From a virus (taxonomy: Duplodnaviria > Heunggongvirae > Uroviricota > Caudoviricetes): a stretch of DNA of 5,797 nt. The notes under the pieces are model-generated. The model searched no databases and had not been told where the DNA came from. It saw nothing but the letters and a program-made list of their open reading frames with translations. This document shows, piece after piece, positions 2,199 to 5,758 of this stretch (positions within the stretch are counted from its first letter, which is position 1; every line of letters begins with the position of its first letter). The stretch lies in the IMG/VR virus record IMGVR_UViG_2778261506_000008, positions 1 through 5,797 of that record; one strand, written 5' to 3'. The position numbers and the translations under genes were made by a program.

Positions 2199-2959
2199 TG
2201 GCAACAAATAACTTTAAAGCGTTCGCGCTTGATCCTAATGCTAACGTCATGTCACAGGCTGACTGGGAATCGCTTCCGGCGTTGCTGTCCGGGTTTACCG
2301 CTGGTAAAGCATCCAGCGCTCAGGTCAACAAAGCCATTCGCCAGGCGACCACAATTGCCGCGCTGGTGGGGCAGTTTATTGCGAACTCCGGAGTAGATGC
2401 CCTGGACAATGCAGACGTTAACGGGCTGGTGACAAAATTCACGAATGCGCTTACCGCAAATCTCCGTTTGGGAGCTGGTGCTCCAGCTATAGGTATTCCT
2501 TTTTTCTGGCCGTCCTCGGCTATGCCAAATACGGTTATGACAGAATGGGCTGATATGGTATTTCTTAAGTTCAACGGAGCGACGTTCTCAGCGACCGCAT
2601 ACCCTAAATTAGCGCAGGTAATCCCTAGCTTAAAACTCACCGAAGCACGTGGCGAATTCCCACGGATTTGGGATGATGGTCGCGGAGTTGACTCAGGGCG
2701 AACCCTACTTAGCGCTCAAGGGGACGCTATTCGAAATATTACTGGCCAAATTATTGGCGCAAACTATAGAGCATGGCGTGGAGAGCCTACAGGGGTCTTT
2801 TCGTCAGCAGAATTGTCTCCAGGCAGTTCATTAAGTACAGATGGGACATCAAATACCAACGGCAGAGCAACCACTATGGATGTATCTCTTCAGGTCCCTA
2901 CTGCATCTGAAAATCGTCCACGTAACATAGCTTTTAACTTTTTAGTAAGGGCTAAATAA
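2198..2959 (+). CDS. Phage tail fibre protein with tail-collar domain
   Basis: N-terminus MATNNFKAFALDPNANVMSQADWESL is typical of Mu/e14-type side tail fibres. C-terminal half carries the collar signature (…TEARGEFPRIWDDGRGVDSGRTLLSAQGDAIRNITGQI…RPRNIAFNFLVRAK). Start chosen at the ATG overlapping the upstream stop (TAATG); an in-frame ATG at 2180 is an alternative. Confidence 0.8.
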   Translation: MATNNFKAFALDPNANVMSQADWESLPALLSGFTAGKASSAQVNKAIRQATTIAALVGQFIANSGVDALDNADVNGLVTKFTNALTANLRLGAGAPAIGIPFFWPSSAMPNTVMTEWADMVFLKFNGATFSATAYPKLAQVIPSLKLTEARGEFPRIWDDGRGVDSGRTLLSAQGDAIRNITGQIIGANYRAWRGEPTGVFSSAELSPGSSLSTDGTSNTNGRATTMDVSLQVPTASENRPRNIAFNFLVRAK

Positions 2960-3552
2960 TGAAACCAATTTTTGATAAAAATGGCCTGGCTACTGAATCA
3001 GGAAATATTCGCTGTTTTTATTACGATGAAAATACGAATGAATATATTGGTTGGTCAGATGAATATATTAATTTAGGTGTTAGCATGCCCAGTAACTCTA
3101 CCGATATTGAACCGGATCAGGAAGTAGACGGAATGATAGCTGTCTTTGTAAGCGGTGCCTGGAGGTATGAGGAGGATAATCGTGGAGAAATAGTCTACTC
3201 AACTGATACCGGCGAGCCTATGGAAATCGATTATATTGGCAAAGTTCGTGATGGTTTCACAAGAGTCGCCCCTTCAACCCCTTTCGACAGATGGGATGGT
3301 CAACGCTGGGTAATAGATGAAGATGCAAAGCATACTTCTGATGTTGTAAGTGCTGAAAAAGAAAAGGAGTTTAGAATTAATGAGGCTAATGAGTATATTA
3401 ATAGGATGCAATGGCCTGGTAAAGCATCCTTAGGGCGATTGAAAGAGACAGAAAAGGCTGAGTACAATAAATGGATTGATTATTTGGACGAACTTTTTTC
3501 CACGGATACATCAACGGCCCCAATGGTGAACTTCCCAAATAAACCAGAGTAG
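2959..3552 (+). CDS. Tail fibre assembly protein (Tfa chaperone, Caudovirales TAP family)
   Basis: 197-codon ORF starting at a TAATG overlap with the fibre gene, AAGGG SD 7 nt upstream. C-terminus …WIDYLDELFSTDTSTAPMVNFPNKPE resembles the conserved Tfa C-terminal motif (compare …VDTSTAPDIEWP…). Lower GC than the upstream tail genes. Confidence 0.8.
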   Translation: MKPIFDKNGLATESGNIRCFYYDENTNEYIGWSDEYINLGVSMPSNSTDIEPDQEVDGMIAVFVSGAWRYEEDNRGEIVYSTDTGEPMEIDYIGKVRDGFTRVAPSTPFDRWDGQRWVIDEDAKHTSDVVSAEKEKEFRINEANEYINRMQWPGKASLGRLKETEKAEYNKWIDYLDELFSTDTSTAPMVNFPNKPE

Positions 3553-3570
3553 GCATAAGCTATAGTATAA

Positions 3571-3593
3571 AGGGCATATTTGGCATATGCCCT
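3571..3593. terminator. Perfect 9-bp hairpin between the convergent tfa and acyltransferase genes (putative bidirectional terminator)
   Basis: AGGGCATAT-ttggc-ATATGCCCT, located 19 nt after the tfa stop and 14 nt after the acyltransferase stop, with A/T-rich flanks. Confidence 0.4.
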
Positions 3594-3606
3594 AATAAAA
3601 GGATTT

Positions 3607-4569
3607 TTATAAAAACAATGGTCGTTTGTAGACCTTCTTGAAAAGTGTAAGGGAGTACGATAAAGATAATGTGAGAACTATAATGGTAATAAATAACACT
3701 GATTTATTATTTATGCCGATTATGTCAAATATTTTATTTGTCGCTTTGATACAAAAAACATGTGCAAAGAAAATTGCTGTAGCAAAATCAGATAGTTTTT
3801 TTGAGTTTCCAGTCAAGGTTCCGCTTTTTGCAATTAAGAAGAGGATTGTAGATGTTGGTATGGAAAATATGAAAAGATCAATTGGTTTGTTTATTCCAAA
3901 AATCGCCTTGTTAATAATGCTTTCCGAAAGTAAAAGGCATATCGAGATTGCTAAAGTTGCATAAACTATTTTTTTGCTAAATTTCGAGAAAGTCTCAGTT
4001 ATGTTTAATTTATTAAGGAGAAAACCGAAGCATAAAAACGGGAAGCAATCAAATAAAAAATTCCTATATAGAGTTATTTTTATTTGCTCGTTCGTTATAA
4101 TTGTATTTACATATCCTTTGTTTACGATGTATTGAATAATTAATCCTATAAGGTATAGGGATAAGGAAGCAAGTAATAATTTTTCTGGGCGTAAATTTCT
4201 GCATTGCCTCAGAACAAGTGATGCCAGAATTAAACCCGGGATATACCATAATAGATGGTAACCAAAAAGAATGTTTAATAAAATGTCAATACCAGAATTG
4301 TTAGGTATCCAAAAATAAGAATACACGCACATCCAAGTAATATATAAAACGACTAATTTTTTTTGGTTTTTAAAGTATTCATTACTATTGATTGTTTTAT
4401 ATAGATAGTAACCGTTTATTATCAAAAACGTAGGTACTGCTATCCGGAATATTCCGTTGACCAGTAAATAACTCAAATCCATATTAAAAGATGCTAAGAA
4501 CTTCAAATGTAAAAGCATGACAAAAATTGACAGTAGAATTTTTAGTAGATCTAGGGTGATGTTTCTCAT
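3607..4569 (-). CDS. Integral membrane acyltransferase, acyltransferase-3 family (OafA/Oac-like), candidate O-antigen/LPS O-acetyltransferase
   Basis: 320-codon, highly hydrophobic multi-helix protein. Three acyltransferase-3 family motifs are present: N-terminal R-x4-D-x2-K…H (MRNITLDLLKILLSIFVMLLH), the RIAVPTFLIINGYYL block (family R…FF-x-SGF region), and HLLWYIPG (family HLWFL motif). Very AT-rich (by eye under ~30% GC), unlike its flanks. Weak SD. Confidence 0.7.
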   Translation of the reverse strand: MRNITLDLLKILLSIFVMLLHLKFLASFNMDLSYLLVNGIFRIAVPTFLIINGYYLYKTINSNEYFKNQKKLVVLYITWMCVYSYFWIPNNSGIDILLNILFGYHLLWYIPGLILASLVLRQCRNLRPEKLLLASLSLYLIGLIIQYIVNKGYVNTIITNEQIKITLYRNFLFDCFPFLCFGFLLNKLNITETFSKFSKKIVYATLAISICLLLSESIINKAIFGINKPIDLFIFSIPTSTILFLIAKSGTLTGNSKKLSDFATAIFFAHVFCIKATNKIFDIIGINNKSVLFITIIVLTLSLSYSLTLFKKVYKRPLFL

Positions 4570-4674
4570 GGTTTCATAAATGCCACTTTATTGATTTTTT
4601 CATATACTAACGTAATATTTTTATTATTTCACCAATAAATTGTCTGGCACACATGCATACTAAGTTCGGTTTGA

Positions 4675-4811
4675 AGGTTAAAGCTCGCGGAGGAGCTGTG
4701 GGCTGAAGCAGGAAGATTGATTGCGGCCGGGAAACCCTGCCAGTGCGTGGAGATAATTTATGATGGGGCGTTTTCAAGCTGTACCTGAAGCCCCCGGCGG
4801 GAAATGTGTGA
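4675..4811 (+). pseudogene. 3' remnant of a serine DNA invertase gene (Gin/Pin/Hin/Cin family), C-terminal HTH domain only, with a 1-nt frameshift
   Basis: Frame 1 (4675-4785) reads RLKLAEELWAEAGRLIAAGKPCQCVEIIYDGAFS; shifting by one nucleotide near 4777 continues as LYLKPPAGNV then stop (4809-4811). This parallels the invertase C-terminus as I recall it (Gin: …KAEWEQAGRLLAQGIPRKQVALIYDVALSTLYKKHPA). There is no start codon, and the upstream sequence is the AT-rich cassette on the opposite strand, so the catalytic N-terminal ~150 codons are missing. Confidence 0.55.
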
Positions 4812-4819
4812 AGTAAATG

Positions 4820-4850
4820 CAGGCGGCCTAGACGACAAACTGGCCGCCTG
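4820..4850. terminator. GC-rich hairpin between the invertase remnant (+) and the dinI-like gene (-); putative bidirectional terminator
   Basis: CAGGCGGCC-(13 nt loop)-GGCCGCCTG, a perfect 9-bp stem 7 nt downstream of the dinI-like stop and 9 nt downstream of the invertase-remnant stop, followed by TTTCACGTT on the + strand. Confidence 0.35.
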
Positions 4851-4857
4851 TTTCACG

Positions 4858-5124
4858 TTACATCGCAACTTGACGCACAGATGGGAGCTCAGACACCAAC
4901 CATATATCGGCCTCTTCAAACATATCCTCAAGCATGCGGTTCAGCTTCTCCCGATCGCTTTTGCTGGCATCGCTATTCAGGCCGTTCGCTTGCATCGGCT
5001 TCACCCTTACTTCGGCATCAGGGAAAATCTGGTGCACTCGTTTCGTCAGCTCTGCCAGGATAATCTCTCTGGCCCCTTCGAGCCCCTCTACATTGCGTTT
5101 GTCATAAACCAGTTCAACGAACAT
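4858..5124 (-). CDS. DinI-family protein (DNA-damage-inducible protein I-like, RecA-filament modulator), prophage-encoded
   Basis: 88-codon ORF; …ILAELTKRVHQIFPDAEVRVKPMQANGLNSDASKSDREKLNRMLEDMFEEADIWLVSE aligns with E. coli DinI from memory (…LAGELSRRIQYAFPDNEGHVSVRYAAANNLSVIGATKEDKQRISEILQETWESADDWFVSE). Strong SD GGAGG 5 nt before the ATG. LexA boxes lie upstream. Confidence 0.85.
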   Translation of the reverse strand: MFVELVYDKRNVEGLEGAREIILAELTKRVHQIFPDAEVRVKPMQANGLNSDASKSDREKLNRMLEDMFEEADIWLVSELPSVRQVAM

Positions 5125-5141
5125 AAAAGCCTCCGGAAAAC

Positions 5142-5189
5142 CACTGTGGTTGTATACAGTGTTTTTACTGTAAAAATAAACAGTGTCAA
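5142..5189 (-). promoter_or_regulatory. Tandem LexA operators (SOS boxes) overlapping the dinI-like promoter
   Basis: Two CTGT-N8-ACAG motifs: cores at 5144-5159 (CTGTggttgtatACAG) and 5168-5183 (CTGTaaaaataaACAG), the second matching the 20-mer consensus TACTGTATATATATACAGTA closely. On the gene strand a perfect -35 TTGACA (5184-5189) abuts box 2; candidate -10 hexamers are TAAAAA (5162-5167) or TATACA (5151-5156). Boxes sit about 20-60 nt upstream of the dinI-like ATG. Confidence 0.7.
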
Positions 5190-5246
5190 GGCGAGCGGGG
5201 CGCGAAAGGGAGAGGGGGTTTTGTTACCCTTAGTTACAAATAGAAA

Positions 5247-5277
5247 AACCCCAGACCGTGAGATCTGGGGTTCTTTT
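5247..5277 (-). terminator. Rho-independent terminator (bidirectional) between ssrA and the dinI-like promoter
   Basis: Stem AACCCCAGA / TCTGGGGTT (9 bp, 8-nt loop) flanked by U-runs on both strands (TTCTTTT on +, TTTTTCTATTT on -). Lies about 125-150 nt downstream of the mature tmRNA 3' end. Confidence 0.5.
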
Positions 5278-5395
5278 AAAGTGCACGTGCATTTCACGTG
5301 TATATTTTTGTCTTTTCTCGGTCTGCCTGCTGTCTGGTCAGTGTCCGTAAGTGGCTGTTTTTATTGCCGCTGTCCGGTTGCAGTCCTATCAAAAG

Positions 5396-5758
5396 TGGTG
5401 GAGCTGGCGGGAGTTGAACCCGCGTCCGAAATTCCTACATCCTCGGTACTACATGCTTAGTCAGTCTTTACATTCGCTTGCCAGCTGCGGACGGACACGC
5501 CACTAACAAACTAGCCTGATTAAGTTTTAACGCTTCAACCCCAGGCAGGACTTCCACGCGATCTCTTTTGGGTTTGACCTCTCTTGATCCCCGTCCTAAG
5601 AGCGGAGGCTAGGGAGAGAGGGCTCTAAGCAGGTTATTAAGCTGCTAAAGCGTAGTTTTCGTCGTTTGCGACTATTTTTTGCGGCTTTTTACGAGGCCAA
5701 CCGCCCCTCGGCATGCACCTTGGGTTTCGCAAATCCCGTCGAATCCAGAATCAGCCCC
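5396..5758 (-). ncRNA. ssrA: tmRNA (SsrA), complete 363-nt mature sequence
   Basis: Reverse complement begins GGGGCTGATTCTGGATTCGACGGG and ends …CCCGCCAGCTCCACCA, and contains the tag template GCAAACGACGAAAACTACGCTTTAGCAGCTTAA (ANDENYALAA). Essentially identical to the E. coli tmRNA I recall. Confidence 0.97.

Follow-up and report, generated by a model that had tools for sequence, protein, structure and literature searches.

The locus analyzed here raises the question of why a small dinI-like gene lies directly beside ssrA at the edge of a prophage, how it is controlled, and what its product may do. The analysis covered a stretch of DNA of 5,797 nucleotides (the window), in whose open reading frame list the gene appears as an intact minus-strand reading frame at 4858..5124, with an ATG start and a TAA stop, encoding 88 amino acids. 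The explanation that we consider probable is that of an att-proximal, LexA-controlled cargo gene of the MsgA type, carried by a PhiNP-like prophage in ssrA. SOS-controlled dinI-like genes at the att end are a standard arrangement, known already from many enterobacterial temperate phages, and the main value of the present results is a correct annotation, that of one more predicted prophage-borne member of the SOS regulon.

The signals in front of the gene bear out the description given in the earlier note, which had proposed a strong ribosome-binding site and two LexA operators overlapping the promoter. A Shine-Dalgarno sequence, GGAGG (5130..5134, minus strand), can be read 5 nt before the ATG and is kept in all ssrA-adjacent relatives. 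On the same strand, a consensus -35 hexamer, TTGACA (5184..5189), which is likewise read from the sequence and kept in relatives, is followed at a spacing of 16 nt by a putative -10, TAAAAA (5162..5167), assigned from this spacing and from aligned relatives, which have TATAAA or TATAAG at the same place. A generic promoter scan of the window did not call this promoter because the tool demands a T at position 6, which TAAAAA does not have, and the assignment was made by hand, from the consensus and the alignment to relatives. The distal LexA box, CACTGTTTATTTTTACAGTA (5166..5185; gene strand 5185-5166), has an exact CTGT-N8-ACAG core at 5168-5183 that fills the spacer between the -35 and the -10, and its 20-mer shares 2 nt with TTGACA. 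The proximal box, CACTGTATACAACCACAGTG (5142..5161; gene strand 5161-5142), is exact as well (core 5144-5159) and begins 1 nt past the -10, over the expected transcription start, so that the -10 lies between the two boxes, whose centres are 24 bp apart. Scoring by heterology index, which had been suggested as a check, gave 7.4 for the proximal and 4.9 for the distal box, inside the range of 0.9-9.8 of the E. coli operators used in building the index, which is an approximate surrogate from 29 such operators, not the published Lewis matrix, and whose absolute values should not be set against published ones. Exactly two CTGT-N8-ACAG sequences occur in the 5797-bp window against 0.06 expected, a number reached by 1 of 200 shuffles. 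Measured from the ATG, the boxes lie at about 17-18 and 41-42 nt; those of Salmonella chromosomal dinI lie at 19 and 42 nt (PMC8072944). A LexA-controlled divergent partner gene of the UmuD-like kind known from mEp390 and phiKO2 was not found, the interval 5190-5395 holding only hairpins and the att arm. A plus-strand open reading frame of 218 amino acids at 4804-5460 was rejected as an antisense artefact running into ssrA.

Both sides of this transcription unit carry hairpins. Between ssrA and the dinI-like promoter, the terminator scan called a strong intrinsic terminator on the minus strand (5244..5275; 14-bp stem and U-run), and the 76-nt segment 5225-5300, which also takes in a second small hairpin, folds at -28.3 kcal/mol (z=-4.9). 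The probable role of this terminator is to end transcription of ssrA and to insulate the SOS promoter; terminator-like palindromes likewise precede the LexA boxes of the Gifsy dinI genes (PMC3121763). Just past the dinI-like stop codon lies a GC-rich minus-strand hairpin with a weak U-tract (4820..4850; fold z=-2.7), which the terminator scan passed over because its loop exceeds 8 nt and which is likely to act as a terminator or bidirectional stop. The ssrA gene itself is complete (5396..5758, minus strand; ARAGORN, and Rfam RF00023 at 295 bits) and 99.7% identical to that of E. coli, and its tmRNA was the only structured RNA found in the window with Rfam. Its 3' end holds the 25-bp att core TGGTGGAGCTGGCGGGAGTTGAACC (5396..5420), which marks the prophage/host junction and is an exact match to the published PhiNP attP/attB (PMC6456863). 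Homology with satellite-bearing relatives ends at 5418.

Membership of the DinI family, which had been claimed from the reading frame, is unambiguous at the level of sequence. In a profile search the 88-aa protein hit Pfam DinI (PF06183) at 79.1 bits against a gathering cutoff of 24.2 (E=3.2e-22, profile positions 2-63 of 63); its PDB match was E. coli DinI (1GHH/7YWA; E=2.4e-7, residues 17-79), and it also matched PHROG 189, 'RecA filament binding protein DinI' (E=1.5e-21). PHROG 189 spans fusions such as coliphage 186 Tum and the split tum of Fels-2 and PSP3, which are LexA-controlled and have a DinI-like half; because only positions 71-150 of 151 were matched, the window protein, in contrast to 186 Tum, has no antirepressor half, and by this profile coverage the Tum-type N-terminal antirepressor domain is absent from its 88 residues. 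The score against the NCBIfam DinI equivalog NF007893 was 39.9 bits, below the cutoff of 111, and identity to E. coli DinI is about 30%. The subthreshold equivalog score therefore indicates an MsgA-type paralogue and not DinI proper, and the protein is not an orthologue of the chromosomal DinI of E. coli and Salmonella (1GHH, 7YWA). It shares with the latter the Pfam DinI domain, a similar size, an acidic C-terminal helix, membership (predicted for the window gene) of the SOS regulon, and, in the case of Salmonella dinI, a two-boxed promoter, but differs from it in being phage-borne and in a C-terminal extension of 9 aa. This extension is conserved in some phage copies (FPTVRQVGL or LPSVRQVAM) and missing from DinI. 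Salmonella MsgA (macrophage survival gene A) is assigned to the same subfamily by the database naming of close homologues and has been studied as a virulence locus, not as a phage gene; its gene has one weak LexA box, with an HI of 11.9, 14 nt from the ATG (PMC8072944). A single-sequence AlphaFold2 model of the window protein, of low confidence (pLDDT 56, pTM 0.43), shows a strand-helix-strand-helix order compatible with DinI. The median dN/dS of the window gene against its homologues is 0.06, and the family is under strong purifying selection.

These features suggest how the gene would work. A PhiNP-like temperate myovirus would have inserted itself into an Escherichia/Shigella chromosome at the 3' end of ssrA, bringing the dinI-like gene as att-proximal cargo. 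The sigma-70 promoter (TTGACA, 16 nt, TAAAAA) would be bound by two LexA dimers, one in the spacer, where it would block the binding of RNA polymerase, and a second just past the -10, over the transcription start; with the upstream terminator shielding the promoter from ssrA read-through, the gene would be off in undamaged cells. Upon DNA damage, RecA* would promote the self-cleavage of LexA, and the gene would be transcribed and translated from its strong ribosome-binding site. By family analogy, the 88-aa product may use its acidic C-terminal helix (KSDREKLNRMLEDMFEEADIWLVSE) to bind RecA nucleoprotein filaments and tune the co-protease activity of RecA, thereby modulating the SOS response of the lysogen. 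In the alignment with 1GHH residues 16-81, this helix is retained (...EDMFEEADIWLVSE in the window protein versus ...QETWESADDWFVSE in DinI) with the same net charge, and the last 25 aligned positions contain eight acidic residues in either protein. The C-terminal helix of DinI, a DNA mimic, reportedly mediates its contact with RecA (Voloshin et al. 2001).

The last step of this scheme meets the best surviving alternative, namely that the protein is SOS-induced and of the MsgA type but acts on a target other than RecA, either in virulence or stress, a role that has been proposed for Salmonella MsgA, or as a DNA mimic on another DNA-binding protein. RecA filament binding and co-protease modulation are established only for E. 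coli DinI (review PMC6590174), and our literature searches found neither a RecA-binding test of any MsgA-type protein nor a demonstrated role for DinI-like phage proteins or those of the MsgA type. The distance from DinI, both in identity and in the equivalog score, and the C-terminal extension seen in some phage copies would fit a different target, as would the annotation 'virulence protein MsgA' in several family records and the report that non-polar deletions of the Gifsy dinI homologues leave prophage induction unaffected (PMC3121763). On the other hand, the conserved acidic helix, SOS co-regulation, and an operator geometry like that of dinI suit a RecA-linked role, and no alternative target is known. 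We thus regard another target as somewhat unlikely, and modulation of RecA, as suggested by analogy with DinI, is retained in the proposed scheme.

The position of the gene finds its explanation in intact relatives, in which the order is baseplate J, DUF2612, tail fibre, tail-fibre assembly, (acyltransferase), dinI-like gene, ssrA. The first open reading frame inward from the att core is the dinI-like gene, and homology between phages breaks exactly at its stop codon, beyond which relatives have convergent tail or invertase genes. The gene is thus natively monocistronic and the last one before the att site, which is why it is found beside ssrA. In the window, the next gene is an acyltransferase-3 family moron of 320 aa (3607..4569, minus strand; Pfam PF01757, E=1.7e-17) with a GC content of 28-30%, which is optional among relatives, runs in the same direction 288 nt away, and has its own promoter-like site at 4650-4623. 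Near copies of the dinI-like promoter and gene occur in 36 of 5426 complete E. coli genomes, none above 95% identity, and the whole region was found in none of these genomes.

The segment of about 560 bp that reaches from the att core in ssrA as far as the stop codon of the dinI-like gene, and takes in the att arm, the terminator, the promoter with its two LexA boxes, and the MsgA-type gene, is found with ssrA integration specificity on unrelated chassis, including a myovirus, a lambda-like siphovirus, and EHEC effector-carrying prophages, and these observations support its modular spread. A distinct function of the product, which has a conserved C-terminal tail absent from DinI, is pure speculation. 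The combined proposal, that this is a portable unit whose product could be a phage-serving RecA* brake and not a simple duplicate of DinI, seems to us unlikely; if true, such a brake would limit SOS-driven induction of the phage itself or of co-resident prophages, or tune lysogen survival.

Proximity to ssrA had also been interpreted in terms of decay, the earlier note describing a prophage inactivated by IS1 and deletion in which the gene was kept as a host-beneficial module. The first half of this description holds in part: the baseplate J gene is truncated by IS1 at 453/454, whereas a deletion is not visible because the source contig, which is 100% identical to the window (L093), ends within IS1. 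Copies with a complete baseplate J of 399 aa and further tail genes match the window at 99.85% identity over 5.3 kb, one of them (L091) having at least 10 kb of tail genes besides intact baseplate J, and for this reason the IS1 insertion must be recent. Selective retention of the dinI-like gene as an SOS module of benefit to the host, while the rest of the prophage decays, would be in line with the IS1 truncation, with the finding of other E. coli strains where a dinI-like gene persists by ssrA and adjoins prophage remnants that are unrelated, and with the purifying selection on the family. However, so recent an event leaves no decay to be seen, and a gene in the terminal position on the att side is expected to outlast internal deletions without any selection. 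Moreover, the ssrA-adjacent copy of EHEC O26/O103 is a pseudogene with an internal stop, which argues against a general retention at the level of the host. Selective retention therefore appears improbable, and a cargo gene that is natively terminal in its prophage accounts better for the arrangement. The function of MsgA-type genes in phage or host could conveniently be tested in an intact relative of this prophage.

Comparable genes are known from several temperate phages. The window protein is 80-92% identical to phi80 dinL, mEp390 gp24, and other att-proximal MsgA-type genes, which stand alone in functional phages (mEp390, phi80, HK140). In the lambdoid coliphages phi80, mEp390 (gp24), mEp237, HK140, and HK225, whose products are 81-91% identical to the window protein and in some cases also have 88 aa, the gene follows the tail-fibre genes on the opposite strand and close to attP, as in the window, and the promoter logic is shared, with a LexA box within the TTGACA/TATAAA spacer. 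These phages differ from the window prophage in being siphoviruses with other att sites; furthermore, phi80 and mEp390 have one LexA box where the window promoter has two, and upstream of the dinI-like gene of mEp390 and phiKO2 lies an oppositely oriented UmuD-like gene, which the window lacks; the promoter annotated for this UmuD-like gene in phiKO2 lies in the region of the LexA site. The Citrobacter rodentium temperate myovirus PhiNP has the same 25-bp ssrA att core as the window and, like the window prophage, myovirus-type tail/baseplate genes. In the published account, ORF1 is listed as a DinI-like protein among 'fitness' cargo genes (PMC6456863), and its number suggests that it adjoins the att site; no description of LexA boxes at this gene was found in the passages of that article that were consulted.

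The analogy with Salmonella Gifsy prophages drawn in the earlier note, on the other hand, does not carry over. In the dinI-antirepressor (gfoA/gftA)-irsA operon of Gifsy-1, -2, and -3, the first gene is a damage-inducible DinI-family gene preceded, as in the window, by a terminator-like palindrome and then a LexA box, but the operon is polycistronic, has one LexA box, and triggers prophage induction through its antirepressor, whereas the window gene is monocistronic, two-boxed, and located at the att end. It is highly improbable that the window gene is a remnant of such an SOS operon from which the antirepressor was deleted. The statement that no antirepressor-like open reading frame follows in the window is accurate, since directly downstream there is no small gfoA/gftA-like reading frame but a hairpin and then the acyltransferase, and this would be compatible with a remnant; yet nothing has been lost here, the homology between phages stopping exactly at the stop codon before the hairpin. 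The dinI gene upstream of gftA in Gifsy-2 (STM1019) is a different paralogue, only 26% identical to the window protein and situated behind the replication genes in the early region, whereas the window gene occupies the att-proximal late end and shares its high identity with stand-alone genes of functional phages and intact prophages. Gifsy-2 itself has both types in separate places: at its att-proximal end lies an unannotated MsgA-type copy, C-terminally truncated, 90% identical over residues 1-63, and with a LexA box of its own, and it is this copy that corresponds to the window gene in both position and sequence. Phage 'dinI-like' genes thus comprise at least two paralogous classes, one early-region and linked to an antirepressor, the other stand-alone, att-proximal, and of the MsgA type; because the two differ in genomic logic, they are not to be conflated when predicting prophage induction.

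Conservation gives strong support to LexA control of the window gene as predicted from its promoter sequence. At least one LexA box (HI <=11) was found within 160 nt upstream in 87 of 88 homologous loci from phages and Enterobacteriaceae, against a background rate of 0.008 per 160 nt in 685 kb of the same loci, and this footprint is solid evidence for SOS control of MsgA-type genes across the Enterobacteriaceae. The two-box promoter is common to every ssrA-adjacent copy, and the position of the proximal box (-13 to -18 from the ATG) is occupied in about half of the 88 loci. In a comparison that took in E. coli, Enterobacter, Citrobacter, Pseudocitrobacter, and Atlantibacter, the distal box was identical in all ssrA-adjacent and two-box relatives of the window promoter except one (L023). 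Across relatives, boxes occupy two fixed positions, in the spacer and just past the -10, with sequences that vary while CTG-N10-CAG is kept. That the two palindromes arose by chance or have a structural role, for example as a terminator or another RNA hairpin, and that the gene is outside LexA control is barely credible: the terminator scan did flag 5142-5161 on the plus strand as a weak hairpin followed by T's, but the excess of exact boxes in the window, their recurrence in nearly all homologues, the fixed positions relative to the -35 and -10 with changes that preserve the palindrome, and the damage inducibility of relatives (PMC8072944) all speak for operators. Binding of LexA and induction at the window promoter itself would be expected by analogy with these relatives, for which they were measured. 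For example, the Gifsy dinI homologues and msgA, all of which have a LexA box, respond to nalidixic acid with an induction of 4.6- to 23-fold and 3.4-fold, respectively (PMC8072944), and mitomycin C leads to accumulation of the Gifsy-2 DinI protein (PMC3121763). The dinI-like gene of phiKO2 has been stated to be LexA-regulated (PMC7556043), and LexA sites are annotated in the database records at phiKO2 gene 22 and at phi80 dinL, the latter record placing its predicted site where the distal box lies in the window.

The dinI-like gene of the window is an intact ORF of 88 codons on the minus strand (4858-5124), beginning with ATG and preceded, five bases 5' of this codon, by a GGAGG ribosome-binding site (5130-5134, minus strand) that was graded strong, as the earlier note had read it. 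The assignment to the DinI family made in that note was likewise borne out, the protein scoring 79.1 bits in a search of the Pfam DinI profile (gathering score 24.2; E = 3.2e-22), matching PHROG 189, "RecA filament binding protein DinI" (E = 1.5e-21), and retrieving E. coli DinI as the only solved structure (1GHH and 7YWA; E = 2.4e-7). The alignment with E. coli DinI reaches the end of the latter and retains the acidic C-terminal helix. On the NCBIfam equivalog model for chromosomal DinI the protein obtained 39.9 bits, under the cutoff of 111, which makes it, by profile comparison, a paralogue of chromosomal DinI and not DinI itself. Part of the MsgA-type subfamily, the window copy included, has a conserved C-terminal tail of 9 residues with no counterpart in DinI, and the gene is under strong purifying selection (median dN/dS of 0.06 against 50 homologues).

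Across the whole window there are exactly two occurrences of the motif CTGT-N8-ACAG (5144-5159 and 5168-5183), against 0.06 expected from shuffles, and both lie upstream of this gene. On the gene strand, the promoter reads TTGACA (5189-5184), CTGTTTATTTTTACAG, TAAAAA (5167-5162), CACTGTATACAACCACAGTG, 7 nt, GGAGG, 5 nt and ATG, with a consensus -35 and a putative -10 separated by a 16-nt spacer on the minus strand. The distal LexA box occupies this spacer and shares two bases with the -35, an overlap that had been correctly recognized from the sequence, and the proximal box starts one base past the -10, so that the transcription start must be expected under the proximal box if this promoter is used as predicted. 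On a heterology-type index, an approximate surrogate derived from a set of 29 E. coli operators and differing from the published matrix, the two boxes scored 4.9 and 7.4, within the range of the operators behind it (0.9-9.8), and the third-ranked site in the window scored 12.6. The promoter is absent from the output of a generic promoter scan because TAAAAA lacks a T at position 6; relatives have TATAAA in this place.

The same arrangement was followed across 88 gene copies having sufficient upstream sequence, comprising 80 loci from species-representative genomes (Enterobacter, Citrobacter, Kosakonia, Leclercia, Atlantibacter, Tatumella, Salmonella and others), with E. coli prophages and the phages mEp390, phi80 and phiKO2 making up the remainder. 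Counting sites with an index of at most 11 within 160 nt 5' of the start codon, at least one LexA box was found in 87 of the 88 copies and two in 18, against a background of 0.008 such sites per 160 nt in the other 685 kb of these loci. The boxes recur at two positions, in the -35/-10 spacer and immediately past the -10; in aligned homologous promoters their centres vary by lineage with CTG-N10-CAG preserved, and some promoters keep a decayed half-site where a second box had been. Taken together, these observations indicate a functional operator pair rather than a chance occurrence. All ssrA-adjacent copies (five in E. coli, plus those in Enterobacter, Pseudocitrobacter and Atlantibacter) have the two-box promoter of the window. 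The sole locus without an upstream box, in Enterobacterales bacterium CwR94 (about 3840-4003 of L011), has upstream sequence unrelated to that of the other loci, which suggests that this copy may be rearranged or promoter-less. LexA sites are also annotated at the dinI-like copies in the GenBank records of phi80 and phiKO2. In Salmonella, nalidixic acid induced the Gifsy dinI homologues 4.6- to 23-fold and msgA 3.4-fold, each with its LexA box at a distance of 14-19 nt from the start codon, and the dinI gene proper carries a pair of boxes, 19 and 42 nt away (PMC8072944), a spacing nearly equal to that in the window. Mitomycin C led to accumulation of the Gifsy-2 DinI protein (PMC3121763).

Judged from the sequence, the boxes are of operator quality and placed to obstruct both RNA polymerase binding and initiation, and LexA would repress the gene until RecA* prompts its cleavage. 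Upstream of the promoter, the terminator scan reported a strong terminator at 5244-5275, the 76-nt segment containing it folding at -28.3 kcal/mol (z = -4.9); this terminator should stop ssrA transcripts and shield the SOS promoter, and terminator-like palindromes likewise precede the Gifsy LexA boxes (PMC3121763). Once made, the protein may use its acidic C-terminal helix to bind RecA filaments and tune RecA co-protease activity, by analogy with E. coli DinI, which stabilizes filaments when present stoichiometrically and, at high levels, inhibits UmuD cleavage (reviewed in PMC6590174). This last step is the weakest of the proposed mechanism; our literature search found no paper testing an MsgA-type protein on RecA, Gifsy dinI deletions gave no induction phenotype (PMC3121763), and the 9-residue tail noted above sets this copy apart from DinI.

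The earlier note had likened the gene to the Gifsy operon in which dinI is co-transcribed with an antirepressor, a comparison that rests on the wrong paralogue. The Gifsy-2 gene concerned, STM1019, which precedes gftA, encodes a protein only 26% identical to that of the window and maps to the early region, past the replication genes, whereas the window gene is att-proximal. Gifsy-2 (NC_010393.1) also contains a second, unannotated MsgA-type ORF (45340-45560, minus strand; about 66 aa, C-terminally truncated). Situated at the prophage end next to att, this copy shares 90% identity with the window protein across residues 1-63 and is served by a TTGACA promoter and a near-consensus LexA box of its own (TACTGTATATACAAACAGTT), and it is to its class, by sequence and position, that the window gene belongs, not to that of STM1019. 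The same class includes phi80 dinL, mEp390 gp24 and the copies of mEp237, HK140 and HK225 (81-91% identity), and in these functional phages the gene stands alone between the tail fibre genes and attP. The absence of an antirepressor downstream, also remarked on from the sequence, holds: the gene that follows on this strand encodes an acyltransferase, lies 288 nt away and has a promoter-like site of its own. When the window is aligned with prophages that have other tails, nucleotide homology stops exactly at the stop codon (4858), just past which lies a GC-rich hairpin (4820-4850; fold z = -2.7). Nothing has been lost downstream of the gene.

Positions 5396-5420 (25 bases) exactly reproduce the attP/attB core published for PhiNP, a temperate myovirus of Citrobacter rodentium that integrates in the ssrA 3' end and whose ORF1 is listed as a DinI-like protein (PMC6456863). 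The remaining content of the window fits a prophage of this kind. An IS1 transposase remnant (InsB C-terminal part and terminal inverted repeat; 1-453) abuts, at 453/454, a baseplate J gene that has lost its first ~50 codons (346 aa remaining, against 399 when complete), and the prophage part further encodes a DUF2612 wedge protein, a tail fibre, a tail-fibre assembly protein and the acyltransferase-3 family protein (320 aa; 3607-4569, minus strand). The prophage also occurs in other genomes (99.2-99.85% identity), there with the complete baseplate J and at least 10 kb of further tail genes; two of these copies are found in a host with a flank only 82% identical to E. coli. In all of them, and in the more distant intact prophages of E. 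coli DX6 and 25-07338, gene order is constant: baseplate J, wedge protein, fibre, assembly protein, optional acyltransferase, dinI-like gene, ssrA. The exact protein is present in many assemblies, among them a contig (L093) that matches the window at 100% over its whole length and breaks off inside IS1; its chromosomal flank, 99.4-99.5% identical to E. coli, places the source in Escherichia or Shigella. At loci L089 and L090, compared with L091 and L093, the same prophage end lies at ssrA with 99.2% identity over 5.3 kb and an identical DinI-like protein, the host flanks being only 78-82% identical to E. coli; these sequences indicate a recent spread of the phage between genera.

The acyltransferase (GC 28-30%) lies in a GC trough at about 2850-4650, within surroundings of 50-60%, and low GC extends to the tail-fibre assembly gene and the 3' end of the fibre gene. 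This slot is the one in which serotype-converting phages have O-antigen modification genes; DX6 has a different acyltransferase there and 25-07338 none. A remnant of a Pin/Gin-type DNA invertase, its C-terminal helix-turn-helix part, is found at 4675-4779 (plus strand), with 60% identity over 35 aa (E = 1e-8) to an intact invertase adjoining dinI in an E. coli locus (L001). The low-GC cassette appears to have replaced most of this tail-fibre invertase gene. Otherwise intact prophage copies are collinear with the window across the region (99.2-99.9% identity).

That the dinI-like gene is selectively kept as a host-beneficial module while the prophage decays, as had been proposed, finds no support: the IS1 insertion is recent, since uninterrupted copies are 99.85% identical, the supposed deletion is not visible because IS1 is where the assembly stops, a gene at the extreme prophage end outlasts internal damage without selection, and the ssrA-adjacent copy is a pseudogene in EHEC O26/O103 strains. 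In EHEC strains (L008 from E. coli E2865, and also O26/O103 hits H18-H25), the stretch from the att core to the proximal LexA box is kept at 95% identity, the gene itself is more divergent with an internal stop, and the type III effector genes espK and espN lie 3' of it.

LexA-controlled dinI-like genes are already described, in the literature or in annotation, for Gifsy, 186/Fels-2, phiKO2, phi80 and Serratia phage OS31. Our literature search found no description of the specific two-box promoter of the ssrA-linked module, which is a variation on a known design with a geometry common to Salmonella dinI; the finding is real but ordinary. Its mild interest lies in the role of MsgA-type proteins and in a portable att-to-gene unit, in which att arm, terminator, SOS promoter and gene spread together over unrelated phage chassis. 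At two loci (L092 and L094, about 1-9700), homology to the window ends at 5418, within the att core, and a P4-like satellite lies immediately upstream of the dinI-like gene, where the window has ssrA; it is probably a tandem insertion at the ssrA att site. The satellite genes encode an integrase, Psu, Ogr/Delta, AlpA, an Ash-family protein and a D5-type primase, to which L094 adds a HamA/helicase (Hachimoji-like) pair.
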